From Moniliella sp. 'wahieum' (Eukaryota), in NCBI GenBank assembly GCA_003971905.1, contig RSEE01000021.1, positions 496,001-560,000 on the forward strand: 64,000 nt of DNA, in the 5' to 3' direction. The notes beneath the pieces are model-generated. The model was not told where the DNA came from and searched no databases. It worked only from the letters and a program-made list of their open reading frames with translations. This document shows, piece by piece, positions 9,899 to 58,604 of the stretch. The position numbers and the translations under genes were made by a program. Numbering within the stretch: position 1 is the first letter of the stretch; every line of letters begins with the position of its first letter.

Positions 9899-10060
9899 TG
9901 CATGATGCATGATGCATGATGCAAGCCTCATGCCCCAGGCAGGTCACGGTCACCGGTCATCCGGTCATACATCACCGACTGCGGATACGTTGCCTTTAGA
10001 ATGCTAGATCATCGATCGTCGACCGGTGATCGATGATCACATGTCGATCACAGCTTGTCA
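9899..10060. repeat. Heptamer palindrome arrays
   Basis: (TGCATGA)3TGCA at 9899-9923; TCACCGGTCA near 9950; GA-CCGG-TGA-TCGA-TGA at 10021-10036. Confidence 0.85.
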
Positions 10061-11033
10061 GAGAAAGCCCCGTAAACAGACCTCTGTTATAATAGCGCTA
10101 CACGAGGAAGTGCCACCGGTGCGTGAGGCTTCGCCCTCTCCACGTCTACTATTAGCAAGTGTAGGAAGTAATACTGAAAGGGAAAGGTGCCAGAGTATTA
10201 GCCTGTCAGCCATGTCAGCGCTGCTCAGCATCCTAGCAACGCCCTCTACAGCCTGGCCTCTGTGAGCTATGTGAGCTGAGCGGGGGCATATATTTTGTTT
10301 TGTGTTGCTGTGCCCACGTAGAATCTGTTCCCCTCTCGTTGATAACCTAGTTGGTGTTGTTCATTTGCTAAACCATAAAATGGTGTTGGCGAGGCCCCTA
10401 TGTCAAACCGCAATGTTAATGACGTCTGTGTGCGATATAAATACGCCGGAGAGAGCGAGACAATCGTTATGGTAAAAGTTGTGGGGATGGCTGAGGAGGT
10501 CCATACTCTGTTGAAGAGGCTTTTGCCCTGTTCATGATGCATGCAGTGGCCATGGCACGTTGGGGGGGGGGTGTAGCCTATAGCTCATTAAGGAGACGGC
10601 TGTCTTTTACAGGCGTTTCGGATCGGGCATGCGGAAGAATGCATCACACAGGTGCCGCAAGTGGATTCAATTCCTCCCGCACTTCGACAGGGAAGTTTTC
10701 CAGATCCTTTCGAATTTGGCGCATAATCGACATAATCCCACTGCGTGATCCTTGACATCTAGGCACCTATCAATCCTTCTCTCATATATCTCGACCCCAC
10801 TCATCAAGTCATGCATGTTTGTGCCTGTGTTCACGGCTTGCTGTACACCGAATATCCAGCACCATTTCCCCATTTTAACCTCTCAGGAGCCTACCCGGCA
10901 CCTTTTGTGTCATTGGTTTCTGTCACAGTCCACCCCATGGTCCCAAGCTAGGCGCCATGAGGTAATAGTACATTCGAGGAGTGTGTGGGTCGAGACGAAA
11001 TGCAGGCAAACTAGGCAAAGGTGAACAACGCGG

Positions 11034-15727: not shown

Positions 15728-15984
15728 CTCGGCGCTATAGAAGTAATCCTCCGATAGCATTTCCTCGTGTGGCATGCCACGGGTATGTCAGACGACAGCT
15801 TTTGGCAGATTATGTGGACTGTGGTCCAGTGGAGATCCAATACTGCTGAGTATTGCAATCATCGGGCGACGGGGCCTTGCATGTTACTGAAACATGATCC
15901 CGTGTAGTTCTGCTGTTTTGCGTCTCGCTATGATACACTGTCGGTGCGTTGCGATGGACATGTGGACAGCAATCTTCCCGAAAT

Positions 15985-22050: not shown

Positions 22051-22435
22051 CTGTTGGGACCCGCGGTCCCGTACTTAGGCTAAAGGCATCACCTTCTCGA
22101 TCATCACCCTTCGCCCCTGATTTGACCTCCGAAGCCTCCACGTGTATACTCACTGCAGGCTTGTTTGAACCCCTGTCTCCTCTAGGTGTGGCATAAGGCT
22201 TAGACCTAACCACCACCACATGCACCACCGCGATTGCATTGCTCTACATTTCCAGAGGTTCATCACCCAACCCCTTGGGTTTCTCCGGTCTTACAGATCT
22301 TACACAAGCTTAAAGCGAATGAAAATATTTATCGCTGTCCTTGGTGGGCGCCCACAGCCACATGGCACAGTAACTCAGGACGAAGAAAAGCCCTATTGGA
22401 CGAGAAGTATACTAACTGGGAGACCACCGGGCCTC

Positions 22436-22520
22436 ACACGCCGGATGAGCGGGTCGGTTTAGGCGTAGTGTTTCCCTGTCCCAGCCTTAAGCTCTGTCAA
22501 TGATACGGATGCAATATAGT
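22436..22520 (+). mobile_element. 3' terminus of the CRE-like element
   Basis: GGTTTAGGCGTAGTGTTTCCCTGTCCCAGCCTTAAGCTCTGTCAATGATACGGATGCAATATAG, nearly identical to 29375-29442. Confidence 0.8.
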
Positions 22521-23029
22521 ACGCTCCTTACACCGGCCGACGTCATGATGAAGATGGTGTTAGAGTTGATGTAGGCGCAGGGCGCACGCGAAGACCTGTG
22601 TGTGTATTTGTGGTACATTTGGACGCTTCACGGACATAAGCGGGGGCGCCGATTGAACTCTGCGAGGTCAATATTCAGTGCTGTAGACATGAGACTAGGA
22701 ATTGGAGACGAAGAGGGTCACGAGATGAAAAGTGTTACATCCTCTTGCCCGGCTTCACAGCTTCATAACACCAACTTCCTTTGTTCCCATTCAAAGCAGC
22801 TGTATAGGTATGACGGTGTCACAAGGATCATCTGCCAGTGAAGAAGCGGAAAATGACGTGCCCGCAACGCCAAAGATCCCCACAAATGTGAGTCAGGCTT
22901 AAGGTGAAGTCCTAGACACTAGCAGTGCCTATACGTGTATGGATCATTTTCGATGTAACCCAGATTCCGGGCACGGTCGGCACACAAGCCAAACGACGTA
23001 TCATATGTGCACTGAGGGACATGACAGAC

Positions 23030-23596
23030 TTAAGCAGACTCCTCAACGGCCACGACGGGCTTCTTGGCTCCACGGACCTTGCGGGGAGGGCGGGGGGCCA
23101 CACCACCCTGTTGGGCGCGGATGATGCCCTGGGCCTTGGAGACGGCAGCCCTGTGCAGGTCCGGGCGGGTGGCGGAGACCTGGCGAGAGACAATACCAGC
23201 CGCGCGACGGGCGCCGCCAGTGACCGTGTTGCGGTTGAATTGGCGGGCGACATCCTGCGACGTGGCCTTGGGGTTTTTTGGGAAATGACAACGCCCTTAC
23301 CGTTCTTGGCGGGAGCAACGCCAACTGCAGCAGGGAAAACCGAGGAGTACTGGGAGCCCAAAGCGTTAGAGATACTCTCCATCGCGTCTGGGCGGTTGAC
23401 TCTTTGAAACGTCACAGGCACCCAGGCAGATCCGCATCGTCCGGGTCCAAGAGGGGTAGGGCACACATACCTTGGCCTGGTTGACGGCAGCGATGTTGCC
23501 CGCCTCGCGCGAGAAGAAGAGGGGCACCTGCTGCTGCTTAACAATGTAAGCGTTGCTCTTCTTGGTGAGCAGCCACTGAAGGTCGGAGGAAGCCAT
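23030..23596 (-). CDS. RPL28: 60S ribosomal protein eL28
   Basis: MASSDLQWLLTKKSNAYIVK, FSREAGNI, RPDLHRAAVSKA; intron 23470-23350; TAGGGTT at 23680-23686 and 23761-23767 upstream. Confidence 0.88.
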
Positions 23597-24889
23597 TGCG
23601 CTAAACAGTCGTGTCCAAACGGTGGGGGTTGGATAGGTGGGACAACGATGCGTCCCACTGGTTACGAGAGCAAGAGAGTTAGGGTTAGAAAATGTACCGC
23701 AGTAAGTAGGTTCTTAATTTGTGAAAGCAGGGATAAAGCTGTAATACAGTAAGACAACGTTAGGGTTTGTATTTTCCAGAAACATCAGCCATCCATCGGC
23801 CGCCAGCGTGTCGAGGTACATCTTCTTGCGCCGGTGTATCATCAACTGGTCGCAATCAGAAGGTCCTTACTGACTGAAAGATCTATATACGGAGCTGATC
23901 ACGGGTGGGGAGAGTGAACGAAGTTCGAGTGGAAGTGGTGTTGGGCATGAGAGAGACAGGAGAGGAAGCGACACAGGAGCGCAAACTGGCAGGCGCGGGA
24001 CCTGGGGCAGAACAGTGTGGCCTACCCACTGGTGCAAGGTCATCACGGCCGTGGTCAGGGATATGTCGAGGAGGGAGGTCGAAACAGGAGTTCTCTCGGG
24101 GCTATGCATACCATGAAAATCAGCAGGGAGAGTAGTAGGGGCTAAGCCACATTTGCTCTATATCCATACATGCGCCTTATTCCCCTACGTGTTGCATCAA
24201 GACGAACAGACCGCGGGATGACGAGATGGGTGGTGTGATTGTTGGAGAGAGGAACATATCCCTCTCCGCACTTGGTCACCACTGATTCATCTTTTCAGGG
24301 AGTGGGAGTAAGAAGCTTGGGATTGGAGCAGAACAGACTGTGTACTTCGTTTGGGAGTGGTCCACCTGACGCGGGGTTACGACAGCATCGTCGAGCTGTT
24401 TCAAAAGACGGCCTATAGGTCATCGTCTCCCACGAGAGATGCAACTGTCGATCATCGAAACAGCGCGTAGACTTGAGAGGTAACTACGGGAGACTAATTC
24501 GTAGCTTCATTCGCCATACAAGTCCGGGCGGTCACACATCGTTGGACGTCTGTGGAGACACGACGTCGAGAGCGGTCAACTTCTAAAGCTCACTGTCTAT
24601 GGTGCGGTTATAATCAGTACAACCTATATATCAACGAAAAGTATAAAAAACATCGTTCGTGGCAGCGTTTTTGTATGAAGACGTATAGCAAATCATGACG
24701 ACCAGATAGAGGGGGGAGCGAATAATCGCAGAAGTCGAAACCGTGACCGTTTACAGACCCATGCATCATGGCAAATACAAGGGCATGAGAAGGGAGGCAA
24801 AAAGAGACAAAAACTAATAGGGTCTTGGGACAAGAAGAAAAGACCAATGACCATGGCGAAATAGAAACGTATTAACCAGAAGGGCAACT

Positions 24890-28197: not shown

Positions 28198-28570
28198 TTG
28201 CAACCATATCATTGGCAGAGCTTATAAGGCTGGAACAAATAAACGTTGCGCTTGAACCAATAACTGTTCATCCGGCGTATATTTGCTTGTTAGCGCCATC
28301 CTCGTCTAGGGAACCAGGGGAATCGCCATGAGATCAGGACCCTTTGGTACCCGCCATCCGTTCCCATACACGGGGAAGCGCGCGTGGATACGGATGAAGA
28401 ACGTGGTAGTAGACATCCGAACGGTGAACCATCTGCATCGAGACTGGAGTCCATTCCTTCCAGATACCAGCATCTTTGTCCGCTGCTAACCAGGGGGAAA
28501 ACGGTTTTGGGCGCGTCAATGGTATTTGGCGTTCTAGAGTTAACAGGAGCTGCTCCACAAGCTGGACGCT
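28198..28570 (-). mobile_element. Decayed 3' fragment of the CRE-like element
   Basis: Reverse-complement homologue of about 29060-29442. Confidence 0.8.
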
Positions 28571-28574
28571 GCTG

Positions 28575-29442
28575 ATGGTCGCCATGTGGTTGAGCACAAC
28601 CCGACCCAATTGGCTCTCCGCCATTCCATCCGTCCCCTGCCTCAAGCTCTCTGACCAGCAGGTTCAGGTGGTCTCCAGCTCCACACGCTGTGCGGCTCCA
28701 AGCGCAGCATGTGCAAGTGCGGCGTCAGTCCTCGATGGAGCACATCATGGTGTGCACCCGCTCTCATTCCAAGTTAGTGCGTTGCATGAGCAGTGCGGGA
28801 GCCAGTTCGTGCGCTCCATCCCCCGGCACCCCATCCACACGAACACTATGCCAGTGTGGAGGAAGATGGGGCGGGCGCGGACGGAGCGCACAGCGCACTG
28901 ATTACGGCGTGATAGGGCCTGGAGCAATCGGATCTGTAATGGAGGTGGACCATATGCTGCGCGACACGGGAACGCAGGAGGCGCAGAGCGCGTACCGGAG
29001 GGTGGTGCACGAGAGCGCTGCGTCGCCTTTGGAACGCCGGGAGAAGAAGCTGCTTCGGCTGCTGGAACAAGCAGAATGCTACAAGAAAGCCAAGTACCAG
29101 GGACGCACTCAAGAGCCGTTTTCCCCTCTGGTTTTGACGACGCGAGGATACTACGGTGGTACCAAGACAGCGGGCAATTGGAAGGATTTGGTTACTGAGT
29201 CTCAATGGAAATGATTCCTCGCTCGGATGTCTACCACGTTCATCCGTGTCCACACGCGCTTCCTAGGGTACGGGACCGGATGGCGACCACCGGAGGGTTC
29301 TGATAGCTTGCCGGCGATCCCGCTGGTTCCTTAATCTTGGTGGCGCTTCCAAATAAACCCGCAAGATGAACGGTTCGGTTTAGACGTAGCGTTCCCCCTG
29401 TCCCAGCCTTATGCTCTGTCAACGATATGGATGCAGTATAGT
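28575..29442 (+). mobile_element. 5'-truncated CRE-clade (RLE) non-LTR retrotransposon, the longest copy in the window
   Basis: Across frameshifts: NWLSAIPSVPCLKLSDQQV, a CCHC-like knuckle (CKCG..MEHIMVC), RTDY..EVD and KKAKY..FSPLVLTTRGYYG (restriction-like endonuclease layout), then the shared 3' UTR. Confidence 0.75.
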
Positions 29443-30114: not shown

Positions 30115-32687
30115 CTAATGTCTGGGTGGACCTGACTTCCTTTTTGCCGCACCCCCTAGTACTCTTATACGTGCTTCCTTGTCAGGGTGCGCCCTTTTTG
30201 ACTTAATGTGGGCGCTAAACCCTATGCAATCATAGACATACACTGGGCGGGCGAATGAAATGAAGAGAGTAGGTGAGTCTTGTGAAGGATGTGAGAAACA
30301 TGCGTATGCCAGAAACGCGCCATTGGCCGATGGCAAAGAATGAAAGCAACGAGCACCAACGCTCCTGGACATGAGATCCATCCCAAATCTGGGCTTGTAC
30401 AAATGAGGCGGCATATGTGTGGGGATGTTAGGAATGAGGAAGTGTTTCCTGCCCGCGGTGTGGGCAGAATGAGCCTGGCGCCCCCGAGCCGAAGAAGCAT
30501 GCTTGTTAACCAGAGGCGTGCTACTCATTGATGCTGACGAGACGGACTCGTGCGACCCATGATCCCCCTCCGATCTCGAGCCTGAATGCGCCGAGGAATC
30601 CGTCCCGGAAGTTTCGCGCACGTGTTCGCCAGAAGGAGCGCTCCGTCCCTGTGTAGACACGTCCAGCATTCCTGCCGCCACCATCGCCGCCACACTTTCC
30701 CCGATGGCTTCGGGAGCCTTGCCCTTATTATAATTCGCCGGCCTCGTTGCTTCTGTAGAGGCGCGAATGAGGTAGTAGCTGCGATGGGGGCTGTTGCTTG
30801 AGCGTTCGAGGTTGCCTGAGCGTTCGAGGTTGTCTGGGCGTTCGAGGTGTCTGGGCGTTCGAGGTTGCCTGGGTAGAGTCTGGCTTGGCATCCATATCGA
30901 CCGCGTCCACCTCCTCGTCCAGTCGGCAAAGCTGCGGCACAAGGGACAGAGCAAGCCTGGGTGAAGGCGCATCAGCAGAGGGGGATGCACTTGTAGTGAA
31001 AGGAATGGCGGCAGGGAGCAATAAACAAGCTCTGAGAAACCGTCATGCAAAGAGGCAGATACAGCATTCAGCTATCGGCACGGCTGGGGTACATCTTTCG
31101 CTGGCACGGCTGCGGTGCCATCTTTGGCCGGCACATGCAGCGTGGCACTGTCGCTTTTGTGCAACTGCTGGCACGGTAGGTAGCGCCGAGCTTGGGCCGC
31201 ATACTCCGTCTGCACATCAACGTCATGTAGCTCGACCTTCTGAACCGCCTGGTAGGCGTTGCGTCCTCTGGAATAGTTAACACCCGAGCTTCACAACGTC
31301 TCCCTCGTGCAGCTCGGTTGGCCACTGGCCACCAAAGGCTTGGAGAGACGTGTATTGTTGACAAACGTGCCAGCACTGCTACCCAGGTCACGGATCCACC
31401 ACTTGACAGCAGGGGTTTCTGACGTTTGTGCAGGCGCCTGAACAGACGAATCCAGAGCTTCTTCCCCGAAGACGCATGCTCATCGTTCGCCCCTAGGGCC
31501 AGAGGTGAGATGGGACGATTCATATCTAGGGGGCCCACGTCTTCGGAAAGAGGTTTCCCAGCCTTGGGGGGGGAGGGTCAGAGGTGCACCAAATCTCAAC
31601 GTGTTTTCGCGAAACGACCTTGGCCGACAACGCAGCACGATGTTGTTCCAGGCGTGGTGGGTTGCCATTGGTATTGGGGATTGCGCCACCACGCATTCGA
31701 TGAGGAGATAGAGGAGTAGGGCCGGTAGAATGATTGCCGCCATCACTCCCATCGGCATTGCCTAAGGCGCGTGCTTCGACGTGTGAGGGAGACATGGGTG
31801 CTCGCCTGCCCAGTTGGGTGCACCCCTCCCGTGTCAGCGGAGAGTTCCGGATTAAAGGGCGAGCGATCAGTAAAGCGACCAAGGAACAGTGCCTCTCCAT
31901 CTTGCTCGATCTGGCGCTCGATGGGATCAAACCAGACCTGCATTCCTCGTGCTCCGTCCAACATTGGAACAAGGCGAAACGTATGAAGTGGATTTTGACC
32001 ACGATCCGAGCCCGGTGGAGCAGGGGGAGGAACCTTTTCATGCCAGGACAAATCCCAAGAGGGGGAAGTCACCTCGGGGGCAATTTCAGGGGAAAGCTGG
32101 GGAGCAGCATTAGCAGACACGTGGTGGCCATCACTGCCGAGTAACCGAGCAGCGGCAGCGGTAAAATGACCAACCAAGCCAAATGAGCTGCGGTGGGTGG
32201 GGCTGTCAAGGGCGAGGACGGAGCCGCCAGCAGATGCCGCGCTGGTATAACCGTCCATTATGTTGGTGCCGCTTTGTTGTTGTTCGAGGAAAGGGGTTGG
32301 CTCCGGTGCCGCTTCCGGTGCAGGCTCCGGTGCCGCCGCTGGCTGTGACGATGCGACAGTGCTATTCATGGGACCGGATGCGCGACGGAAGGGGTTTTTA
32401 GAGGGCGTATACTTCGCCATACGGGGTCCGAGTCGTGGCGATGCCCTCAGCAGTAGATTGGTGGTGGAGACGCTCACAGGGCGGGGAGGCTGGGATGAAG
32501 TGTCGCTGCCACCCATGGCGTGTGGGGCCGCGGCATTGGCAGCAGTCGCACGCAGATCGGATGCGGGTGGGACAGGGACTGAGCCGCGACGGCGAAACCA
32601 CGTGCGTGGAGCAGAGAGGCGCGAAGACGACGGACCGGGCGAAACGCTGCGGTCGATGCCTGGAAATGAAGACGGTGGCGGTGCCAT
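30115..32687 (-). CDS. DMA1: FHA + RING-H2 E3 ubiquitin ligase (Dma1/Chf family); 3' end uncertain
   Basis: LFLGRFTDR and SAKVVSRKHVEIW (FHA); ECCICLF..LFIAPCRHSFHYKCI..CPLCRSFAD (RING-H2) read across indels; 18-bp coding repeat (QATSNA)x4 at 30800-30870. Confidence 0.88.
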
Positions 32688-32869
32688 AATTATGGCGACG
32701 ATGCTAATGGTGGTGGTGGTGGGGGCAAGCTAGGGGGGTTGGGAAGGAAACAGAGGGAAAAGCGACTCGCGGCCCAGCACAAGGGAGCTGAGGTAGGTTT
32801 TATGCCGCCATCGCGCTCACAGGCTGAGCAGCCTGGCGGCCCCACGCTGGCATTGGACCAGTCTGGTCA

Positions 32870-34035
32870 TCGAGCTCATGCGTCATGCATCACGCGTCAA
32901 GCTTCAGCTCGTCCCTCAAGCCCCAGGCTGAGGCGGGCTAAGCGCTAACGCTCAGGATGGCCAGGGCCTGCGGCTCTGGGGCCCATCGGGAGATGATCGA
33001 TGATCCGTGGTGCATGATCCGTGGTGCATGATGCATGATGCATGACATGAGTGACTAGAACTCTAGTAACGAGTAGACTGCAAAGGTAAGTGTTCCACTG
33101 CCCCTGCTCGCTCTGCCTGAGCTCTCGGAGACGTGCGTCTGCAGTCTCTGGAACAAGTACGTTTAGTACAAGGACTAATGCAAGGCACAGGAGGGTACAG
33201 GACATTCGCCCGCCCGCCCGCACCGTTTTCTCCGCACTGATGCAGTGCCTGCCTCCGACAGTTCCCCCACAGTCTCCCCCGCAGCCTCGCCGCAGGCAGC
33301 AGGCTTCTCTCTCATGCTGACGTCACATGATCACATACATTCAGGGTACCTTTGCTCGGCGCTCCTTCCAAAATTCACAAGCTCTCAGATCTCAATCTCA
33401 GATCTCAGATCTAAAGCTTCCAGCACTGAGGCTGAGGCGCTGAGGATGCCACGTCCTGTGGGCACACTCTAGGTGGGATAATGTGGCGGCACATTGATAT
33501 TGAGATTGGGGTTCTCAAGCTTCACTTGAAGCTTGAAGTCCAACAAGCTCTGATGCCTGCTGATGCAGCCATGCACTTCCTTCCAAACACGACGACGACA
33601 GAAGGCGAGAGCATGGTGGAATGTAACGTGCGTTGGTGCTACCGCTCTCTTGTCCCGCACATTGGTATTCTGCCCCAGTAGCACCACAACCTCCACATCG
33701 TAGCTGAGACTCAGCTTTGAGATCTGGAGAGCACTGCTTCCTATGTTCAACGTTCACATGTTCACAACAGGCCCCGGTCGCATGTCGCATGTCACATGTT
33801 ACATGTTTACAGCCTCTATGCCTCTGTTCCACAACTATTTCTCAGGTGCCCGATGCCCGGTGCTGCAGGTTAGTTTTGTAACGCATGATTTCGATCATGC
33901 GTATCATCGATACTAAATCTTAAGCCACAAACTCGCTCGAAAAGCGAGGTACGGGAAGCAGCTCCACGTAGCCTCCCTATTAATTAACCCGTTAGCCCTA
34001 AGTTAAGCACTTAGCCTATTAAAAGCGCTAAGCCC
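32870..34035. repeat. Dense heptamer palindrome arrays upstream of DMA1
   Basis: Mixed-core run 32876-32906; TGCA-TGA run about 33024-33045; TCA-GATC-TCA-GATC-TAA-AGCT 33398-33418; TGA-AGCT-TGA about 33526; CATG run 33781-33806. Confidence 0.85.
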
Positions 34036-34149
34036 ACACCTGTTCGTATTATCATCGGATGGTGACAAAAAAGCACGATTTTGTAACGAGATAGACTAAA
34101 AAACCGGAGGGTACCCTGACGCGTGACGTGGCTCTAAATCATCCCTACG

Positions 34150-34726
34150 GCTGTGGCTACTGTGCCAGTGGCACGGAAGCTTATATTTGGCCGGGGCCCT
34201 GCACCTCTCTTCAGTGTGTAGGGCACAGAGAGAGCCACACGGCCATGCAGGGGGTATACTATGCTTCCAAGGGATGTGGCGCATTTTTAGAAGCAACAGA
34301 AGTGAACGCCGCAACACTCAAGAGCCTTTCTTCCCCTTGTGGTCATGACGACGTGCGGATACTATGCTACCGCAAGACCCCCACCAACAGATGTTTTGCT
34401 GGGCACCGCAAGGAGAATAAAAATGTACTAAATCGAGAAAAGTCCCTCATTATGATTGAAGAAGGTTCACCGGTCACCGGTCACCGGTCACCGCGCTCAC
34501 ATGTGTATACCAACACGTTATTCATTCGCATCATTCGTATTCACGGACGCTACGTCCATTTTGTGGAAGCGAATGGCGGGCACCCAAGGGTCCGACTTAT
34601 ACTAGCGGGGCTCCCTTGGTTTCTTGAATGATTTTGGCGCCAAAACAAGCATGCAACGCACGCCGCATCAGCAGGGTTTTTCGAGCGCAACGTTTTTTGT
34701 CCCACAACTCTGGCCTTAGGCCTTAA
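34150..34726 (+). mobile_element. Highly decayed CRE-like fragment containing heptamer expansions
   Basis: CACTCAAGAGCC..TTCCCC..TGACGACG..GGATACTA (34315-34365) matches 29106-29152; 34500-34705 matches 29226-29405. Confidence 0.7.
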
Positions 34727-34893
34727 GTCCTGAAAAAGGACAAGTCTTCCCTGCTACAGCTTCAACGTGTGTCAGCTTTCTTCATCGGGTGGTATATATC
34801 TCCACATGGAAGGGAAGGACGGTAGGGGCCTATGTGTTTGATAGGGGTGTTGCGTAAAATAACATCACACAGGAAATACAGGCAATACGGTAA

Positions 34894-35309
34894 AAGCTTC
34901 AAGCTTCAAGCTTCAAGTGTGAGACTCTGTCTCAGGGGTAGTGCATGCGGGGGATGGGAAAAAGGGCCTAGCAACTGAGACTGCTGTGCGGCCGACCGCT
35001 ACAAACACACTTTTTTATTACAGTGCTAATTGAGATGACATGTGACATTCATTGATTTGATCGCGGTTCCATAGGTATGATTATGTTGACGTATGTTACG
35101 CAAGGATGATGAGATCTGGGACCACGCAAGGCAACCCTGTTTCCCGCCATATATAATGCACCAGTACCCCCCCAGCAAATCATTGTGGAAGACTGGGGGA
35201 ACCGGGAGAACCCACGGAGTTGAAATTTGAGCGGGTAACCGTATAAACCGGATAACCGATATTGCAATGGCGATGATCGATGATGCATGATGCATGATGC
35301 ATGATGCAT
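34894..35309. repeat. Heptamer palindrome arrays
   Basis: (AAGCTTC)3 at 34894-34914; TGA-TCGA-(TGA-TGCA)4 at 35274-35308. Confidence 0.9.
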
Positions 35310-38300
35310 TTGATGTTGCAGTAGTACTGAGTGAGTGCAGTGTTGAGACGTTGAGGTCTAATAAGCTTAAGAAGGCTACACACCTGAAGCCTGATGGAAG
35401 AGACCGGGGTTTGAACAATTAAAAAAACCGCAGTGTGTAACAGACTTCTCTCGGAAGGCAACAAACCTTATAGAAGAGAGAGTTATGACTACTAAGTGGT
35501 CCATGAAGCATGAAGCATTGGGCCCGTCCCAAAACATACGTTGCGCTCTCTGCTATTTGGGGGCACGATTTGGATGTTGAACATCTTGAAATGTATATTT
35601 GAGCAATGCAATATCGATGGTATATATGGTTAAGGTCTAAACCTTCTGTAACGGGAGTTACAGGCTTCCCAGGCGGAGACCTTCCCTGATGCCTATATAC
35701 CGGAGACAAGACTTGCGGAGAACTGAACGCTGTTTATATCCAAAGTCGAAAGAACACTGGCATAAACGTAGGAGGGTCACGAGTAGTGCTTGCTGTTCGT
35801 CCGAAGAACCTAGCCCCTGCAAAAGAGGTTGCATGTTAGGGGCTGTGCGAGAAAACGAGAAGCTCCGATGATGGGCGAGGGAGGGGAAGCGAACTAATCT
35901 AAAAGATGATTCTTCTAGAGTGGAGAGTGACTACAGAATAAGGGTGAAGGGGAAACAATGGCGGGCAGCTTAATAGGCCATGACAACTGGATCTAATAAC
36001 AAGCAGGTTTTATATAGAAGAGACGGGGAAAAGGAAAGACCAATAGGCCTATACAGCGAAAAGGGGAAACGATTCAGGAGGAAGGAGTGTTGATCAATCA
36101 CGAGAGGCACGAGGTGAGAGACGGGGCGAGGTTCAAGATGCAAAGCGGACCTGAGACGAGAAACGAGAGGCGATAAACCGAGTCGAAACCATGTGTAGTA
36201 GTGTTTTGGAGTTTAGACGAGCCCGAGCGCAGAAGAGATGATTGTTGTGGGTTTTGTAGTTAGGCCGAGAATCCGAGTCACGATAGCGAGCACAATGGCG
36301 AAAGATTGAGGACTCGAGAAGTGATCATAGGGAGAGAAGCCGAGAAGCAAGAGCGATCGTCGTCCCGTGACACCTTTTCCTAGCTCCATAATACCCGGAA
36401 GAGACAGGGTTTCGAACAAGCCAGAGTAAACACGTGGAGGCTTCGTCGTAAGAGCAAAGGACATGGTGCGAAGCGGAAGAGCAGGGAAAGTGTCTCGGGA
36501 TGAAAGATTGGTAATGGGAGCGAGATGCGCGAGGTCCGTGAGATACTCTATTATAGTATGACAGAGGACAACGAGCATATACCGTTATAATATACTGGGT
36601 CTGTTGAACTCCTCAAGTCCACCCGATACCTAGAAATAGAGTTCAAAAACTCATTGCAAGCATTGAAAGAGAGGTGACGACAGCTTCGGTATGATGCATG
36701 ATACTCAAAAGACTCAGAGATCGAGGGACGCGATGTGTATACGTGTGTGGTTGATCCATTCAGAGGCTATGCCAGTTAACTGGATTTAGTACACTTTTCG
36801 CTGCCATTTGTGTTTGCGATTAATTGAACGTAGTATGCCTCTTGAGAGTACCGACAACCAGGTTCAGACTTTCCCTAAAGTCCCCTTGTCATTGTGTGCG
36901 TGTCACGGTCGTTAGTTCCCAAAGCGCAAGTGCACATCTTGAGGGATGACCTCATGTAAGCAATGAGAATCCTCGCCTGCACCCGTTTTCAAGATATAAG
37001 CCTCACACAGGTACTCCAAGTACTTTTGTAAATACAGATGTATTCCATATTTAGTGTGCTCCCATATATCCCTAACGAACATAACTTGTTGCGACAATAA
37101 AGAAGGGGAAGTAAACATGGCGGGACCTATATACCCTAATGGCACCAACATACGACCGCCGGTGATGGAGGCAGGGACATTTGATTAATGTCACAGAGGA
37201 TGTGAAGATAGACTATTCCATACATACGTGTAGAGGAGAACAGAGACAGGATGAGAGGCGGGTGATGCCTTACGGAAGGTAAATATATACGCCCAGGAGA
37301 GACACGACTCAAAGGCGAGAGAACAAAGACCTCAGTCGAGACGAAAGGCAGCAGAATGGAGGAATTGTTCTTGAGACACAACAGAAAAGAGGGCATGGAT
37401 CAAAGCACGAAAACAGGGGAAGGACGAGAGACGCTCAACAGAAGGAAATTGTTGACGATGGGAGTGAAGTCTACCAAGGTACTATGATATGTGACAGCTG
37501 TCGGACGTGTAGATGATGGCTTCCCTAGACAGTCGCTTTTTGTGTTACGATGCCCGGACGGGGATACGCCACTGTACTACCCCCCCCCCCCCCCCCCTCC
37601 ACCCTCTCTGCGCGCCTTTTTGTGCTCCTGTGTTGCGGTCACATCTCCTGTCGTCCTCTCTGGACGAACGACAAACCGATTTCATACTCGATACTTCACT
37701 CGCTCTCATCCGTGTTTTCGTGATCCATCCCCTTAGCTCTCCTTGAGTCAGTAAGGGCTATCTGTGATTGTACGGCCATTTGATCACGGAGAATCTGGTC
37801 ATGGCTCAACGCAGCGCCCATATTCATCCAGAACGGTGAGAAAAGATGGCACTAAATTGCTTGTTATAAGTAGACGATCACATGAGAAATTTCCTAACGT
37901 TTTCCGGAAAACTATATTGAATACGTCTTTCCCCCCTTCCCTGGTGTGGCCGTCTTGAAACGGATAAAATCTTCGTCATCAAGAGCCTGCTATAAGAATA
38001 TAGAAGTTTGACACCTGGAAATAACTATGGCTCAAAAAAGTCTCTCTCTCTCTTTGACTGCTTTATGGTTAACCGGTACACTAGTATAATGCTCGTCCGT
38101 ATATTCACATCATTCGTGCGACATCCCACATAGGAACGAAGAAAAATGGAAGGAGAGCCGGAAAAGTTATATACTGAGTGCCCTACAGTTGTATGGCGAC
38201 GCCATTTGCATTCTCATTGGGCGAGGGCGAGCTGAGGGAACCCCGGACGAACGCGGACTTGGTGCAAGAAGCGTTTTCTATGGTATTTGTTCCGGCTTCA

Positions 38301-38547
38301 AAGGAAATTCAGATGTTCGGCGTTCTTTTCGTGGCTTTCTTCCCTCTTACAACGCTTTCATTTTATTTTGCTCTTTGACTTCCCCTTTTTCATCGGCTGT
38401 GCTAACGCTTATGACTTTTTGAGGTTCAGAAAAGCGCACCACGTCGCCTTCACGCTTTGTCTGAAGCAACTGATCCCGTAGACACACCCCGGCGGGCTCT
38501 TGAGTCGCCCCCTCTGTCATCTATCATCTGTGCTCTTCGGAATGTAG

Positions 38548-39230
38548 CTATATTGCATCCATATCATTGACAGAGCTGTGAAGGCTGGGACGGGGAAACG
38601 CTACGCCTAAACCGCGACCCGTTCATCTTGCGTGTGCTGCTTGGTAGCGCCAACCCCGCTTTAAGGAACGGAATCGCCAGGAGGTCAGGATGCCCGCCAT
38701 CCGTTCCCATACCCTAGGAAGCGCGTGTGAACATGGATGAACGTGGTAGACATTCGAGCGAGGAACCATTTCCATTGACAGTCAGTAGTCAAATCCTTCC
38801 AGTGCCCGAGCATCTTGCCCGCTGTCTTGGTACCGTAGTATCCTCATCGCGTCGTCCAAATCAGAGGGGGAAACGGCTCTTGAGTGCGTCCCTGGTGTAT
38901 TTGGCATTTTGTCGCATTCTGATTGCTCCCCAGCAGCTGAAGCAGGTCCTTCTCCCGGCGTTCCAACTATAACGGCGGCGTCGCGGTGCTCTCATCATCA
39001 TGCACCATCTTCCGGTACGCGCTGTGCGCCTACTCTTCCTGCGATCCCGTGTGGTGCGCAGCGTGTGGTCCACCTCCGTTCCTGATCCTCCGATTGTTCC
39101 AGGCCCCATTACGCGGTAGTCGGTGCGCAGTGCCCTCCCCCCGAGCCTCGACCCATCCTCTTCCTCCACAGGAGGTTCGTTGTGGACGTGGGTGTCGGGG
39201 ATGGCTATCATATATCACAGCATCACCGTG
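38548..39230 (-). mobile_element. 5'-truncated CRE-like element copy
   Basis: 3' terminus CTATATTGCATCCATATCATTGACAGAGC at 38548; translation RTDYRVMGPG..EVDHT..NAKY; homologous to 28810-29442. Confidence 0.8.
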
Positions 39231-39775
39231 TTCAACTGAACGTTCACCTTGAACGCACCTTGAAGCTCTTGAAGCTTGAGCGCGCTTGAACGTTCAACTG
39301 TGTAAACACTGCTGTCCGCATGCGGCATTGTCACATGTGATGTCACGTGGGCAACATGTGATGCATGAGTGCGGCACATCAACCCTAACGCCTAAGGCTA
39401 TCCCCTGTCTGGCGTTGGCCGGAATGCATCATGCATCATGCATCATTCATCACACGCCACTCGTCACGCGTCATGCATCATGTAACACGTCACTCCAGTC
39501 ACATGTCACAAGTGACTGATAGTGACTAACGACTGCGGCGACGATAATCTAATCGATAACCCGATTCATCGATAACATGGAGATAACAATACAGACCACT
39601 GCGCGTTACAAATATGCTACCCGCACGCTCAAGAACCTTATTGTTGCCGCGGCTCCTCTTGCTGGACGCCGTATTGAGGCGCCAGTTGAGCCCGTTGGAT
39701 GATGAGAAGGCCTTAGGCCTGCGACAAGGTCCGGAGGCCTGAGGGGGCCTAAGGCCTAAGGCCTAAGGCCTGAAA
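39230..39775. repeat. Dense heptamer palindrome arrays
   Basis: ACGT/AGCT block 39230-39300; TGCA/CGCG register 39425-39484; TCGA block 39550-39575; (GGCC-TAA)3GGCC-TGA 39746-39773. Confidence 0.88.
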
Positions 39776-40783
39776 AGGTAAATGAGGTGGGGGAACGAGC
39801 AATTCATGCCGTTCGTTCCTGACGGTGGAGCCCTGAGGGACAGGTGATAGTATCGTGGGTACTAGGGGATAGAAAAAGGTTTGATTAACGATGAGGTGGC
39901 GGAGGCTTGACAGGGGCAGAAGGGGTTTGTTGGTGATGGTGGAACGGGGGCGCGGGGGGAGGGGACAGAAGAGTGGAAGGCGGAGTTGTGGGATCTGCTG
40001 GTGCAGTGTTTTGACTCCAGCCGTTAGCCGCGAGATACAAGGCTCGATAAGGCCCAAGAGCTAAAGCGCTTCAGACGTGTGGACGTGATAATACAGAGAG
40101 AGGGCGAGCCGGTGAGTGAGCCCGGGGAGATAAAAGATATCTGGTTCGTGGACCCTGGCCATCGGCCAAACGGGAACAGGGCGGGGTAACTGCCATAGTG
40201 GCGCTGTGCTGATGCAGGAAACTGGACACTGGGTACTGCGGCCAGGCGCAGTTACCTTCGCATACTCTTCGAACGCAAAACCCGTGCTTCGGCACACTGC
40301 TGTTGTCCGCAGTCCTGTCCCCTGGCCTCACCTCAGCCTCAGGGCTGCTCCAAGCCCCAGACCACAAGCGCGTCACGCCCAGGCACAGGCCAGGCAGTTC
40401 AACGCTCTTGCAGCACCATGCATCATGCATCATGGTTCACGAGCGATGATCGTTGAGAGTATGTTGAACCCGGGTCTGTTTGAGCAGACCGCGCACACCA
40501 GGGAACACTGCCCCCGCTGTTGCGAGGGCCCCTCCAGTGCTACTGCGCCATTCACCATTCCGTATAGTATTTGTGCAAGCTTAAGCGCACTTACACTGAC
40601 CCCCGGCGTACGTCATGTTATTTTTGTGCAAAACCACCAGTGTTCGGCCCAGAGGCATTCTTACAGTAAGCGCAAGCCCGGGCACTCTTGGATACCCATA
40701 TCTCTCCAACTATAATAGGGCGGCCCACTCGGAGCAACATTCCGGTTGCATCCACCCACCTACCTTCCTGGCGCTTTTCTGCC

Positions 40784-42561
40784 ATGGCTCTCCAGTCCTC
40801 ATCCGCAGGCGACCCTGTGTACGACGACCGCAAGAAGTTTACAAGCAATGACGACCTGCCCACTACCCATGTTGTTGCTGCCAACGAGGATGTCATTCAA
40901 ACATCCGACGACGATGAATTGGCCGCACGCATGGGGCACCACAGCGAGTTTTCTCGCGAGTTCAAGAGCATGAGCACCATTTCCTTTGCCTTCTCCATCA
41001 TGTTCGTTCATTCTTTCTTGTTTAAGCACTCCCATGACTGACGACTATTGCATCTATCTTCAGGGGCCTCGTATCGTCCGTTGCGACAACCTTCAACTCG
41101 CCATATCAGTCTGGCGGGCCAACGGCTGTGGTCTGGGCTTGGTTCATGGGCTCCTGCTTCAACCTGGCCCTTGGATCTGCCATCGGTGAGCTTGTATCGG
41201 CCTACCCTTCGGCCGGGGGGCTCTATTCGGCTGCTGGTCTGTCGTCCCCCGTCGCTGGGCCCTCTTGTGGCCTGGGTTACGGGCTGGCTTAACTTTACCG
41301 GCCAGATTGCTGGTATTGCCGGAACGGCCTGGGGTCTGTCGTCCATGCTGTGGGCCTACGCTTATGTGGCCAATGGATACATCCCAGCCCCCAACAGCTA
41401 TGGCTCCAACACAGGTGCCTACGTGGGCCTCTACATTGCCATCATGGTTATTCACGGTGCGATCTGCTGCTTCCCAAACAAGTGGCTTGCTCGCTTCACA
41501 TCAAGCTATGTGTTTATCAACCTGGGTGCAACTGTCGTCACGGCCATTGTATGCCTCGCTCGTACACCCTCGCACGAGATGTTGAGCTCGCATGATGCTG
41601 TGGGCAACCTGCAAGACCTGACAGGCTGGGGATCAAAAGCAATGGGACTCTTTGTTGGCCTGCAGTCGGTTCAGTTTGTCATGACTGACTACGACGCAAG
41701 TGCCCACATGTCAGAGGACATTGCCCGTGCCTCTTTTGCTGCACCGGTAGCCATCTTTGTTGCTGTGATTGGCACCGGCTTGTTTGGCCTCTTCCTCAAC
41801 GTTGCCCTCGTCTACTCTTCGGGTGGAATGGACTTGAGTGATGTGTCCACTATGCCGGGCGAACTTATCTTTGCTCAGATTCTGCGGGTCCGGGCTACCA
41901 AGGTGGGCTTCCTTATCATCTGGCCTTTCATTATGGCTACAGCTTGGTTTGTCATCCAGACGGCCCTCCAAGCGAATGCTCGCTCCTTCTACGCATTCTC
42001 TCGTGACGGTGGCCTGCCCGACCGCAAGTTCTTTGCCAAGGTGAGCAAGAAGACCAAACAGACAGTCAATGCCGTCTGGCTCGTTGTCATCCTCTGTATC
42101 GCTCTTATTTTCCTTTCCTTTGCTTCGCGCGTAGCCGTGTCGGCCATCTTTTCCCTTTCGGCGGTGGGGATGGACACTTCCTACCTTATCCCTATCGTCT
42201 GTCGCCAATTTTCCAAAACCATCCTGACGTCCAATTCAAACCCGGGCCCTTTTACCTTGGCCAAGGCATTCTTTCCCGCGTGGTGAACGGCATTGCGATT
42301 GTATGGACCACGTTTGAAGTGACGGTTCTTTGTTTCCCTGTGATTCGGGACTACGACGCTTCCACCTTTAATTACTCTTGGGTTGTTGCCCTAGGTTATT
42401 TTGCTGGCCATGATTTGGTACGTTCCTATGCCTGGCGTACCTACCATGGACCCATTTCGTCCCTGCACAAGAGTCAACTGGACAAGCTTGGGATTGTGGA
42501 CCGCGAAAATGAGGCCTCGGTTGAGTCAGGGAGTCAACAAGAATCCCAGCTGGAAAAGTGA
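40784..42561 (+). CDS. APC-superfamily amino acid/polyamine permease (GABA/choline-permease-like)
   Basis: REFKSMSTISFAFSIM, WVTGWLN, TDYDASAHMSED, RSFYAFSRDGGLP, NAVWL; intron 41002-41063. Confidence 0.9.
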
Positions 42562-54537: not shown

Positions 54538-56075
54538 GTGCATGATGCATGATCGATCGATGCTAGGCGCTAGTGTGCGTGCCACGTGCGACATGCATCA
54601 TGCATCATGCATCATGCATCATGCACCACGCACCATGCATCACGCCCATCGATATCTCCGCTTGTCAATAGGGATAGTTAGTTACTAGCTACTAGTTACT
54701 AGTTTTACTAACAAACTGCGATGCGGCCCTGCTGAGACACCCACAGTTCCCACCAAGCGGGGCCGCTCGTGTCAGCGCGTTCAGCGCCATAGGAGCAGCA
54801 GAGGGCAGCGCGAGGCGGCGCAGGGCAGCATAATTGCTGGTTGAACGTGTTGAAAACGCTGAAGCTTCAAGTCAAGCTTCAAGTTCAAGTGAACTTCGAG
54901 GACGGAAGGTGGAAGGTGGGATCCCGTCAAGCACTGGGACTGAACGTTCAGCTGAATGTTGAACCGCTAAACTTCAACCCTCGGCCTCAGCGCCTCAGCG
55001 CTGAGGCTCAGCACTGCCTCAGGACGCGGGACCGTGACCGCGTGACCGGGGACCAGGGACCGGTCCAAAGCGCTACTCGCTATTAACATACTGGTCGATG
55101 ATCGATGATCGATGATCTGCCACGCCTTAGATGGCCCGTGCGCAATTGCGGGTACATGGTACACAGGCCCCGGTACGTATTGCGCGTCTCTTCGTTCGCT
55201 GTTGCGGTAACGTAACGTCGTAACTAGCGTAACTAGTAACTAGCTAGTAACTAGTAAAAACGCTCACAACAACCCCATGGTACAGCCAGCAGAAGCTTGA
55301 AGCGCTTCAAGTTCAGCCTGAACGTCCTGAGGCCTGAGGCCTCGTGAACGTGTGAACGTTCTGAGGCCGGCCTGAACGTGTTGAACGTCAATCGACATCG
55401 TTCTTGAAGCTTGAAGCTTGAAGCTTGAAGCTTGAAGCTTGAGGCTTCAAGTTCGTTCGAACGGTGCAAACGATCAGCTCTCCCTGATCGTTCGATGTGG
55501 GCAAATTCGGGTGAGCGGGGTAACCGGTACGGTAACAGGTAACCGGCAAAATGATCGAATGATCTGTAACTTGATAGCCGTGATTGAGGCGTAACGCGTA
55601 ACGCGTGATGCATCCCAGTACCCAGTCTCGATTGCTTGGGTTCTCCCCACGCCTGGGGTGGCAAATGCGCCAACAAGCTATGACTGCAAGCCAGCTACTT
55701 GCACGACCTGCCCTTGGACTTGGTTTCTGGGATCTTGTGTAGTGGTGCACTGCTGTGCTGGTTGGGGCCGACCCACTCCGATCACAGATTAGTGCTGGGC
55801 ACTGGGTCGCGGAGCCAGACCGGCCCAAGGCCATGCAGCACAGCGACAGTGCTCCTGCGCTCGTCGGCTAAGCGCTAAGGCCAGCCGGCCCACCACCTGT
55901 GCAGCGCTGCCATGTGCAACGCAGCACACTGCACCTGTGCGCTTCCATGCGTCACACTCGCCATCATGCGTCACGCGTCACGCTGCGCCTGGCTCGCCGG
56001 TTTTGTGGGAACGCACGGCGCCAGTGCGCCCGAGTTGGGCGAGATAGCCTAACGTGAACGTTCAAGTCGCACTTG
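54538..56075. repeat. Largest heptamer palindrome array field, upstream of glycogen synthase
   Basis: (TGCATCA)4TGCA 54594-54625; CTAG block 54682-54702; (TCGATGA)3 55095-55115; (TGAAGCT)5 55405-55439; TAA-CGCG-TAA-CGCG-TGA-TGCA 55592-55612; TAA-GCGC-TAA-GGCC 55869-55882. Confidence 0.92.
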
Positions 56076-56194: not shown

Positions 56195-58604
56195 ATGGAA
56201 CAGTCTCTCGCCGTGCGCAATGTGCGCTCCCCCATCCTCTTCGAATGTGCTTGGGAAGTCGCCAACAAAGGTGAGTTGTGTGCTAGCGCATGTTGGCTCA
56301 TGTACCCCCCCCCCTTCCCCCTCCCCTCGCTCTCCCTGACCGCGGCGGACTGACCCTGCTGCCCCCAGTTGGCGGAATCTACACTGTCATCAAGACCAAG
56401 GCTCCATCACGAGCAAGATATGGTAACCGCTACACTCTTCTCGGCCCCTGTCCTACAAGAATGCTCGCATGGAAGTAGAGGAGGCCGAACCGACTGACGC
56501 GGCGATGAAGGCGACACTTGAGGCGATGCGGGCACAGGGTGTGCGCCTTCTCTATGGCCGTTGGCTGATTGATCGCACCCCGCAAGTGTTGCTCTTCGAC
56601 CTTGGCTCTGTCTCGCATCGGCTGGACGAAGGGAAGAAGGATCTTTGGGAGAAAGGCCCAGATCCCGACGCCCCGACTGACACGGAGACCAATGACACGT
56701 TGCTGTTGGGTTACCTTACCGCCTGGTTCTTGGGCGAGTATGCCTTTCACAGCGCGAGCATGCCATCATTGCCCACTTCCACGAGTGGCAGGCTGGTCTG
56801 GCTATTCCCCTAATCCGCAAGCGACGTTTGGACGTGACCACCATCTTTACCACCCACGCGACCCTTCTCGGCAGGACTTGTGCGCAGGTGATGTGGACTT
56901 TTACAACATCTCAATACTTTGACGTTGATGTTGAGGCAGGCAAGCGCGGCATCTACCATCGTTACTGCATTGAACGCTCCGCCGCCCATTCCGCTGATGT
57001 GTTCACTACAGTTTCTCACATTACTGCTTACGAGTCGGAGCACCTACTCAAGCGCCGCCCTGATGGAGTTTTGCCCAACGGCCTCAATGTCGTCAAGTTT
57101 TCCGCCGTGCACGAGTTCCAGAACCTCCATGCCGTTTCTAAGGCCAAGATCAACGAGTTTGTCCGAGGACATTTCTATGGCCACTACGACTTTGATCTTG
57201 AAAACACCATCTTCATGTTCACAGCGGGGCGGTACGAGTTCCGCAATAAAGGTGTCGACATGTTTATCGAATCGCTTGCACGGCTCAACGGGCGGCTGAA
57301 GGCCTCCGGTTCCAAGATGACAGTCGTGGCGTTCATCATTATGCCGGCGGCCACCACCAGCTATACGATGGAAGCTCTTAAGGGCCAGGCGGTCACCAAG
57401 GCACTTAAGGAAACGGTGGACCAGATCAGCGCGCGGGTAGGCCAACGCCTACTTGAGCGTACCGCTCGCTCGGCTGGGTCTGAGTCGGCCAACTTGGAGC
57501 AGATTGATCCAGAGCGTTGCTCGACGAGAAGGACAAGATCGCCCTGAAGAGAAGGCTGTTTGCGATGCGTCGCCAGACGTTCCCTCCTGTGGTGACTCAC
57601 AACATGGCGGACGATTCCAAGGACCCGATCTCAGCCAAATTCGCCGCGTAACTCTTCAACCGGCCTGAGGACCGTGTCAAGATTATCTTCCACCCCGAGT
57701 TCCTTAATGCCAATAACCCCATCCTCGGCATGGACTATGAAGACTTCGTCCGCGGCTGTCACTTGGGCGTCTTCCCGTCGTATTATGAGCCATGGGGCTA
57801 CACTCCAGCCGAATGCACTGTCATGGGTATCCCAGCATCTCGACCAACTTGTCGGGCTTTGGATGTTTCATGGAAGACATGATTGAGGATGCTGAAGACT
57901 ATGGGATCTACATTGTCGATCGTCGGTCCAAGGGGGTGGAGGACTCGGTTAATATGCTGACTGACCAGATGGAGTCCTTTGTCTCAAGACGCGGCGGCAG
58001 CGCATCAACCAGCGCAACCGCACCGAACGTCTGTCGGAGCTACTCGACTGGAACAAGTTGGGGCTGGAGTATGCCAAAGCACGGCAACTCGCTCTCCGTC
58101 GGCCTACCCGGACAGCTTTGACGACGACGATGATGGCCTCTTTGCTCTGGGAGAGGACGAGGGCGAAGGGTATCAGATTGATCCCTCGCAAGACTTGGCG
58201 ATGGACGCATGCGGATTCCGCTGAGTGTGCCCGCCTCGCCTCGCCTGTCGGGTCTGCGGACGCCGGGTGACTTTGGTACGCTGACCGACTCGCTTGCTCG
58301 TGCCACGTGTCGGGGGTGAGCGATGCTGGCTCCAACGCCTCGACGCACACCGACTTTTGGCGCTCGATCGCCCGCCCGCCCGAGGACGACCCGGACGAGG
58401 AACGGTTCCGGTTCCCGTTGGCCGTCAAGCCGCGTTCGCGCCGCGGCACCCTCTCCTCCCGGTCGGGTGCGTCGACGCCTTCGGCTACCCGGGTTGCGCG
58501 GGGCGGCGGCGGCGCAAGCGGCCAACGCGCGCGATGGTGCCGGTCCTTCCTCGGCCGAGCTCGATCAGGCGAATCAAGCGCTGCATGCGCACAACAACCA
58601 CTAG
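56195..58604 (+). CDS. GSY1: Glycogen synthase (GT3)
   Basis: [84 protein letters not shown]; intron 56271-56368. Confidence 0.96.

Follow-up and report, generated by a model that had tools for sequence, protein, structure and literature searches.

Between positions 54538 and 56075 of a 64,000-nucleotide stretch of DNA from Moniliella sp. 'wahieum' (contig RSEE01000021.1 of assembly GCA_003971905.1, positions 496,001 to 560,000 of the forward strand; hereafter the window), blocks of tandem heptamers are found in which the letters TNA alternate with a self-complementary tetramer, here called the core. This field lies upstream of a glycogen synthase gene with several exons (56427..58118, + strand); the exons begin at 56427 and none of the events described below falls inside the gene. 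Other open reading frames (ORFs) across the window match condensin Cnd3, lanosterol synthase, a multicopper oxidase, an amino-acid permease, an MFS transporter, Gti1/Pac2 and five ribosomal proteins, and the window is nuclear DNA of a basidiomycete fungus. The closest named proteins to the glycogen synthase exon are those of Exobasidium (78%) and of Ceraceosorus, Tilletiaria and Ustilago (76–77%), which makes the organism a relative of the smuts (Ustilaginomycotina). We propose that the heptamers are probably, though by no means certainly, the footprints of repeated excision of a cut-and-paste DNA transposon or transposon family.

Exact tandem repeats with at least two copies occur 46 times in the window at period 7, 38 times at period 6 and nine times at period 8; with at least three copies, the numbers are 10, 0 and 0. 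A 6-bp palindrome plus one base accounts for 32 of the 46 period-7 units, and 31 of these 32 are of the A....T type. Runs of identity at a lag of 7 exceeded order-3 Markov simulations at every length (87 against 38.9 for length 5, 38 against 10.3 for length 6, 17 against 2.4 for length 7 and 9 against 0 for lengths of at least 15), while at lags of 5, 8 and 10 runs of length 5–7 reached at most ~2.5 times the expectation. The succession of TNA, a 4-nt palindrome and the same TNA is present 79 times compared with 3.0 in simulations of the same order, whereas the 15 other pairs of outer bases gave 3–15 matches with 2.0–6.3 simulated, the highest of them, ANG and CNT, being the alternative phase of ATGCATG arrays. 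At a spacer length of 4 we counted 135 TNA pairs, 79 of them palindromic, with 42.3 and 2.5 expected. Palindromes are not in excess for spacers of 2 (8 against 9.6) and 6 (0 against 0.43), and those of 8 nt show a small excess (4 against 0.23). Within the 1.5-kb field, 18 matches were found, all 18 of them matched to their flank in the sense given below; simulations of orders 1–4 trained on 54538-56075 alone had means of 0.1–2.4 and a largest value of 7. A preliminary description of this locus had reported a genuine tandem-heptamer pattern that obeys a rule rather than a fixed sequence. Both points stand. Under one TNA scheme 14 different cores occur, and within the window a comparison by period and outer bases, of the kind that it had called for, gives an excess specific to T..A and period 7.

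The 14 cores observed, out of 16 possible, comprise the 11 named in that description together with TATA, ATAT and AATT; GTAC and TTAA, which it had called weak, have no occurrence in the window. We counted 108 distinct event intervals, classed by the number of bases that they add to a single site (15 of +6, 68 of +7, 13 of +8, nine of +9 and three of +11). Only one of them lies in the Pfam-supported ORFs (15,147 bases), in agreement with the near absence from coding DNA noted earlier. Events are strongly clustered, with 25 in 54–56 kb, 28 in 32–36 kb and 10 in 38–40 kb, and nine of the 16 2-kb bins at 0–4 kb and from 36 kb onward contain none. These empty bins are mostly stretches of long ORFs, unlike the bin at 36–38 kb which is ORF-poor. 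The recurrence of the rule was recovered at 9.9, 16.7–17.2, 21.6, 28.0, 32.9–35.3, 39.2–39.8 and 49.4 kb; the further occurrence given for 58.9–59.5 kb is weak, with a single event interval in the 58–60 kb bin. To say that the pattern fills the intergenic field was too strong, as exact events cover 282 of its 1538 bp in 25 intervals, of which the last 450 bp hold two. A single long heptamer satellite in decay was considered and rejected: the TNA phases modulo 7 are scattered between blocks, so that the blocks are not the remnants of one long array. Individual copies within arrays do decay by point mutation.

The origin of the cores becomes apparent when a site is written pq-TNA-rs, with q'p'pq or rss'r' as the predicted core. 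In 49 of 63 arrays the core half equals the two bases beside TNA, for which chance would account in ~12%. Among the 53 single events, 20 mirror the upstream flank only, 10 the downstream flank only, nine both and 14 neither. Likewise, where pqTNA recurs as a 5-bp repeat at a lag of 7, the spacer is q'p' in 53 of 65 instances for the + strand and in 42 of 53 for the − strand; plain 7-bp duplications devoid of inversion number three per strand. The smallest event is a 7-base insertion consisting of five bases taken directly and two taken inversely from the unique immediate flank, and it is no repeat of a pre-existing palindrome. Because these smallest events are templated by the flank, slippage is excluded as their origin, and so are a binding-site code and scars made of element-end nucleotides. 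Chains of two cores follow the order predicted by the model outlined below. At 35272..35306 (GA-TGA-TCGA-TGA-(TGCA-TGA)x3-TG) the left core mirrors the upstream flank and the right core the downstream flank, the same order is found at 39462..39482 (CG-TCA-CGCG-TCA-TGCA-TCA-TG), and a further chain at 17061-17081 conforms with one mismatch.

Junctions were enumerated as a site, either trimmed by 0–3 bases or extended by palindromic (P) nucleotides, followed by P nucleotides and a second copy of the site, with sites of the form NN-TNA-NN; counts refer to both strands and were compared with 20 simulations. The dominant +7 class was observed 95 times (0.3 simulated). Two kinds of +8 junction, the site followed by one P nucleotide and the site, and the site minus one base followed by two P nucleotides and the site, were present nine and 12 times (0.2 and 0 simulated). 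The site with two P nucleotides and the site (+9) occurred eight times (0.05 simulated), the site with two P nucleotides on either side of the joint (+11) six times at three loci (0 simulated), and +6 products 7–12 times (about 1 simulated). In the +7 product 5 + 7 bases of the two site copies are retained, whereas all seven site bases are duplicated in the +8, +9 and +11 products, which points to a staggered cut of 7 bp, symmetric about N, rather than of 5 bp. A 5-bp duplication supplemented by two P nucleotides was rejected, as it cannot yield the +8, +9 and +11 joints. The most informative junction is the +11 event at 10035..10052 (GA-TCA-CATG-TCGA-TCA-CA), where GATCACA is present twice, the left copy extended by TG and the right copy preceded by TC, each mirroring its own end. 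The period-8 and period-9 arrays that Tandem Repeats Finder reports in the field (e.g. 54984-55001 and 55033-55048) are +8 and +9 variants. The events thus display heterogeneous junctions grouped around a dominant +7 product, two copies of the duplicated site and P nucleotides templated by the flank, all of them features of the excision footprints of transposons that hairpin their flanks. Graded heterogeneity of this kind is the expected outcome of end joining at opened hairpins (PMC5873905, PMC5499845).

The target is defined by a narrow rule. Among 156 signatures of the form [ab][XYZ][b'a'][ab][XYZ], XYZ is TNA in 95, compared with 0.38 simulated. Use of the central N largely follows its availability: 2170 TSA sites have 50 arrays between them, and 872 TWA sites have 13. 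The 49 sites that could be reconstructed reveal a weak symmetric preference of the flanks, C-R-T-N-A-Y-G, with C at −3 in 47 of 98 cases and A at −2 in 35 of 98, and this preference makes TGCA the commonest core. Symmetric targets that extend weakly as a palindrome are typical of the preferences of DDE transposases. We also counted the odd-centred geometry of the Ac/Ds type for 7-bp sites, leaving aside every interval that overlapped with the even-centred class. The products left in the five classes (1, 0, 0, 3 and 5) are near chance, so that the tip of the presumed hairpin should lie exactly at the end of the duplicated site. The odd-centred hAT geometry was rejected on these counts and because the period is 7, not 8. 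Canonical hAT chemistry therefore does not describe these events, for which hAT footprints are still the best-documented analogue.

These data establish the rule, its statistics, the range of junctions and the avoidance of coding DNA; from them we infer a transposon, flank hairpins and joining steps in the following course of events. A transposase would make a 7-bp staggered cut centred on T-N-A, so that pq-TNA-rs would end up duplicated on both sides of the element. Upon excision, it would seal each flank as a hairpin exactly at the border between element and flank. Host nucleases would then open the hairpins ~2 nt from the tip and thereby create self-complementary overhangs of 4 nt, q'p'pq and rss'r'. 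An opening at 3 nt would not change the product, T and A being complementary. Joining of overhang to overhang with ligation of each strand would lengthen the site by 3 + 4 = 7 bp whatever its sequence. The two +7 products, pq-TNA-q'p'pq-TNA-rs and pq-TNA-rss'r'-TNA-rs, would correspond to the two strands of one mismatched joint, which replication would resolve into an upstream-mirrored or a downstream-mirrored allele. Rarer joints could arise when both overhangs are kept (+11), when the hairpin is opened at the tip or 1 nt from it (+9, +8) or when a base is lost (+6). Overhang-to-overhang joining would explain why +7 dominates, why there are two mirror classes (20 and 10 singles) and why +3 is not in excess.

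The model also offers a way for arrays to grow. Each scar would recreate TNA sites with palindromic flanks, and inside an array such flanks would provide identical cohesive overhangs, so that a new visit would add exactly one identical unit; slippage may contribute to this growth. At the edge of an array, the outward flank would supply the new core, giving rise to chains of an upstream-derived core, TNA and a downstream-derived core. Scars that shift the reading frame would be purged from exons, hence their build-up between genes.

It is established for hAT, Transib, MULE and RAG that the flanks form hairpins and that end joining leaves footprints with P nucleotides (PMC5499845, PMC5873905). 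In Ac/Ds footprints the palindromes have as their centre the complement of the base that borders the element, and the footprints of Candida albicans show two dominant forms (35 and 18 of 128) and short P tracts (PMC5873905), so that uniform scars in a fungus are plausible. The events described here share with the hAT footprints of plants, budding yeast and C. albicans (PMC5873905) the two copies of the duplication, joined via short palindromic insertions and small deletions that the flank ends template, and a few dominant products. They differ from Ac/Ds and other hAT elements in a duplication of 7 bp instead of 8 bp, in the strict T-N-A target centre and in palindromes whose centre falls between bases, exactly where the duplication ends. 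They are, moreover, very dense and iterated into arrays, and they are known from the scars, the element itself being unseen. In the V(D)J coding joints of RAG, in Transib and in Muta1 the hairpin tip lies exactly at the border; RAG and Transib generate 5-bp duplications. RAG, Transib and Muta1 resemble the present case in having P nucleotides centred between bases, an opening a few nt off the tip and variably trimmed end joining, but no ends similar to recombination signals were seen here. Muta1 differs in that its excision in yeast is >90% precise; its flank hairpin comprises 43 + 43 nt (PMC5499845) and its duplications are 8–9 bp (PMC5225508).

Two groups of fungal elements with duplications of the appropriate length are candidate agents. 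Kyakuja, of the KDZ group, produces 7-bp duplications, ends in CA..TG and is found in Agaricomycotina, Russulales among them, and hAT7 produces 7-bp duplications in rust fungi (Kojima 2025, PMC12730594). Both thus agree with our events in duplication length and phylum, and Russulales is the order that the metagenome contig L062 discussed below resembles. Against this, the available portions of PMC12730594 report neither from Ustilaginomycotina and the window contains no copy of either. The KDZ elements of Cryptococcus have duplications of 4–8 bp, and CNIRT6 was rejected as a source since its duplication is 3 bp (PMC12810828). In rice, as here, excision scars supply small insertions near genes and not in exons (PMC4423477). 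The rice scars are messy, with filler and deletions, and were found via occupied sites, unlike the uniform and reiterated ones of the window, which emerge from sequence alone. What is new in the present case is the 7-bp site centred on T-N-A, the even-centred geometry, the iteration into arrays, the density, at 108 events in the 64 kb, and the presence in two subphyla. The preliminary description did not recognise the heptamers as a described repeat family, in line with a full-text literature search (subscription journals outside its coverage) which found no description of such arrays.

Metagenome contigs were scanned for (TGAAGCT)3, which yielded 121 loci with 542,944 bases. Signatures with other cores are present at 0.07 per kb in these loci, about the chance level, and (TGAAGCT)3 arrays elsewhere are therefore mostly ordinary isolated repeats. 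The multi-core grammar was found only at L062 and, weakly, at L034 and L030. The 12 kb of L062 contain 7 clusters compared with 0.53 simulated (maximum 2 in 100 simulations); 10 of 11 matches are flank-matched and one +9 junction is present. A helicase ORF on this contig is 84% identical to a Lactarius protein, followed by proteins of Lactarius, Lactifluus, Russula and Gloeopeniophorella, indicating a Russulaceae-like agaricomycete far from the organism of the window. L062 carries a 5.4-kb tandem duplication with 79–87% identity, and three of the 43 indels between the two copies coincide with arrays. One of +7 corresponds to a TGA-GATC unit, one of +14 to two AGCT units, and at a third of 13–14 bp one copy has a single TAA where the other reads GG-TAA-CCGG-TAA-CCGG-TAA. 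These differences between paralogs are before-and-after views of the process in a second, independent data set and argue against an assembly artefact, with the caveat that the direction of change is not polarisable and that slippage could alter the number of units. At column 371 of the alignment, one paralog has a palindromic 6-bp insertion, CCCGGG, before CCCC, which an element with a 3-bp duplication could have left as its scar (site plus three P nucleotides). On a bacterial-looking contig, L073, which carries a phosphoglucomutase ORF, (TGAAGCT)n and its complement flank a short ORF in inverted orientation (L073:67-500), such that heptamer arrays of this type occur outside fungi too.

Several observations weigh against repeated transposon excision. 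Fourteen of the 53 single events mirror neither flank, just one +11 locus in three combines two different palindromes, and the +3 product expected from the loss of both overhangs is not in excess (TNATNA 59 against 69.4). A transposase domain was found in none of the 142 ORFs scanned (14 + 128), and the window is devoid of an inverted-repeat element bearing a TNA-centred 7-bp duplication; the 7-bp direct repeats that border inverted repeats in the window are array artefacts only. A candidate element-end motif, CTCACTG, has four matches in the window with 12.3 expected. Excision is well supported by the anatomy of the events, but with neither a matching element in the window nor a pair of occupied and empty sites, the link to an element is one that we infer. 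Reported excision scars are neither as dense (108 events in 64 kb here) nor as uniform (68 of the 108 being one product), and in rice only 8 of 94 excisions left a clean double target site (PMC4423477). Growth of arrays by slippage is indistinguishable from growth by repeated visits. In addition, the bacterial-looking L073 scored 4 clusters. Short contigs can evidently mislead, and small counts on them are for this reason not used as support.

The main rival to the transposon is a host process of break repair or replication that involves no mobile element, which we consider unlikely without dismissing it. In one form, a site-specific nuclease or a domesticated transposase would break TNA with a 7-nt stagger, and fill-in with fold-back synthesis would follow; in another, a nascent strand would switch template at TNA and generate a small duplication with an inverted insert. 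A host process would fit the lack of an element in the window and the very uniform and very dense products. An enzyme common to both hosts could be behind the appearance of the same rule in a contig from a distant basidiomycete, and fill-in of a 7-nt 5′ overhang with snap-back would yield the same products of site, P nucleotides and site. However, no nuclease that cuts NN-TNA-NN with a 7-nt stagger is known to us, though no search aimed at one was made, and the +11 joint with a different palindrome at each end, the variable P lengths and the small losses speak for two ends that were processed separately. Integration and excision of a transposon, on the other hand, explain the duplication and the hairpins by known chemistry (PMC5499845). 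The preliminary description itself proposed heptamer microsatellites, quasi-palindromic and prone to form hairpins, that would arise and expand, like (CNG)n, by slipped-strand or cruciform mutagenesis, an origin that now appears quite improbable. As in (CNG)n, a unit combines a palindrome with one base that stays unpaired, and its single strands can adopt hairpins with mismatches. Folding with one mismatch per unit was confirmed for two arrays (z-scores of −5.8 and −3.7), but a third folds no better than shuffles (−0.4). Unit number also varies between the paralogous copies on L062, and arrays of 3–5 units are commoner than random re-hits predict, so that slippage probably adds units. Yet slippage needs a starting repeat, and 53 of the 63 arrays are single, with five direct and two inverted flank bases. 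Unlike (CNG)n, the events are flank-templated insertions at a specific site with many unit sequences under one rule, the restriction to T-N-A and the +8, +9 and +11 variants are left unexplained by slippage, pure 7-bp duplications are rare, and array ends locked to TNA and mirroring the flank set the heptamers apart from microsatellites. Nothing in the sequence indicates that the repeat was created by its own slipped-strand or cruciform structures. A hairpin at the origin of the pattern, which had also been suggested, agrees with the flank-mirrored palindromic junction nucleotides, which bear the mark of covalently closed hairpins at the ends of broken DNA, as in transposon excision or V(D)J-type joints, and not that of slippage like that of (CNG)n.

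The heptamers might also be selected cis-regulatory arrays in which a dimeric factor reads TNA-N4-TNA or the palindromes in promoters. The fields are indeed mostly located upstream of genes, e.g. those for glycogen synthase and the amino-acid permease, and TGA and TCA half-sites recall bZIP sites. Such a factor, likewise proposed in the preliminary description, is nevertheless very improbable: there are 14 cores, each dictated by neighbouring bases, and no conserved recognition sequence, events also lie downstream of genes (49.4 and 59.2 kb), copies decay by point mutation and the phases of different blocks are unrelated. That three units span two helical turns, which had been remarked upon, plays no role in any of the results. 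TNA is also the classic 3-bp target duplication of PIF/Harbinger and IS5, and a transposon of the PIF/Harbinger kind with a 3-bp TNA duplication would match it; 3 + 4 bp would add 7, and inverted element ends would make the core palindromic. A variant would combine the duplication with nucleotides from the element ends, as for Tc1/mariner. We find either scarcely credible. Hairpins on TNA-ended flanks predict a core T-N'-N'-A, unlike the cores observed, the +8 and +9 junctions duplicate all 7 bases, and TNATNA is, as mentioned above, not in excess. Element-end nucleotides would predict one fixed core per family, whereas 14 cores are present and 49 of 63 arrays mirror their flank.

If excision of a transposon with a 7-bp duplication is indeed at work, ~100 small insertions in 64 kb would derive from a single mobile-element process, and excision, not insertion, would be a leading source of non-coding change and of 7-bp repeats in this fungus. 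The scars would constitute an event-by-event archive of hairpin opening and end joining in which the repair preferences of a non-model fungus could be read from its genome alone. From sequence alone they would allow the past activity and the choice of target of this class of element to be assayed. For annotation, heptamer arrays should not be mistaken for regulatory motifs. The same grammar in the Russulaceae-like contig suggests that the process is widespread in Basidiomycota. It is conceivable, albeit rather doubtful as a whole, that a long-lived lineage of transposons with a 7-bp duplication centred on T-N-A, Kyakuja/KDZ-like or undescribed, has by way of RAG-like hairpins on the flanks written tens of thousands of uniform scars into the intergenic DNA of basidiomycetes of at least two subphyla, and that these scars propagate themselves into arrays, which would amount to a new transposase-driven route to microsatellites and promoter sequence.

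The flagged field begins with a single +7 event in which the upstream flank is mirrored (CA-TGA-TGCA-TGA, 54541..54554), followed by four TCA with TGCA between them (54596..54623) and decayed copies up to ~54649. A +7 event with the downstream flank mirrored, TCA-AGCT-TCA (54870..54889), overlaps a +6 variant. Two +8 events come next, CCTCAGC + G + CCTCAGC (54985..54999), with the full site twice and one P nucleotide, and CGTGACC + G + CGTGACC (55033..55047), and then three TGA with TCGA between them (55097..55117). The nested TAA complex at 55219..55259 is a chain of +9, +7, +11 and +7 junctions in which the filler of earlier events is incorporated in later sites, the product of one being the site of the next. 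The +7 event CC-TGA-GGCC-TGA-GG (55326..55339) is closely followed by a +8 variant at TCA (GTTCAC.., − strand; 55343..55357). The longest array, six TGA with AGCT between them (5 units; 55403..55444), is the one with the hairpin z-score of −5.8; its upstream flank CT is mirrored and its downstream flank GG is free. Further downstream are the +8 event GATCATT + C + GATCATT, in the − strand reading (55550..55564), and three +7 events, CG-TAA-CGCG-TAA-CG (55590..55603), GC-TAA-GCGC-TAA (55867..55880) and CG-TCA-CGCG-TCA-CG (55969..55982).

Elsewhere, a +9 event, TGTCAGC + CA + TGTCAGC, occupies 10204..10219, and the second dense field, with 28 event intervals in 32–36 kb, extends over 32881..35310. 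At the start of this field, the three-core chain at 32883-32906 (CG-TCA-TGCA-TCA-CGCG-TCA-AGCT-TCA-GC) has outer flanks that do not mirror the outer cores; it fits the simple model only with later point changes (CGCG to TGCA being two CpG transitions). The surrounding ~8 kb (32730-41040) contain no ORF of at least 200 amino acids; two dense scar fields are located there, with none at 36–38 kb. The GC content drops to 46–48% at 35–38 kb, and a C18 run is found at 37580-37597.

With regard to the remaining sequence, the genes for ribosomal proteins L7/L30, P0/L10, L6e, L35Ae and L28e (2043-2669, 11037-12104, 12414-12965, 14709-15213 and 23369-23713) are unusually concentrated, five in 22 kb. A dispersed repeat of up to ~650 bp, with copies 72–88% identical and the common terminus TGCATCCATATCATTGACAGAG, is present at 15984-16224, 22435-22522, 28198-28485, 28816-29441 (− strand) and 38548-39204. 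Two of the copies lie tail to tail at 28.2–29.4 kb, the family has no Pfam domain and its members may be solo long terminal repeats. In one aligned pair of copies no copy-specific +7 indels of the TNA type were detected. Finally, two tandem repeats do not follow the TNA rule, GCGAAGGCT x6 at 15675-15727 and an 18-bp unit x4.4 at 30793-30873, the latter falling inside a long ORF on the − strand.

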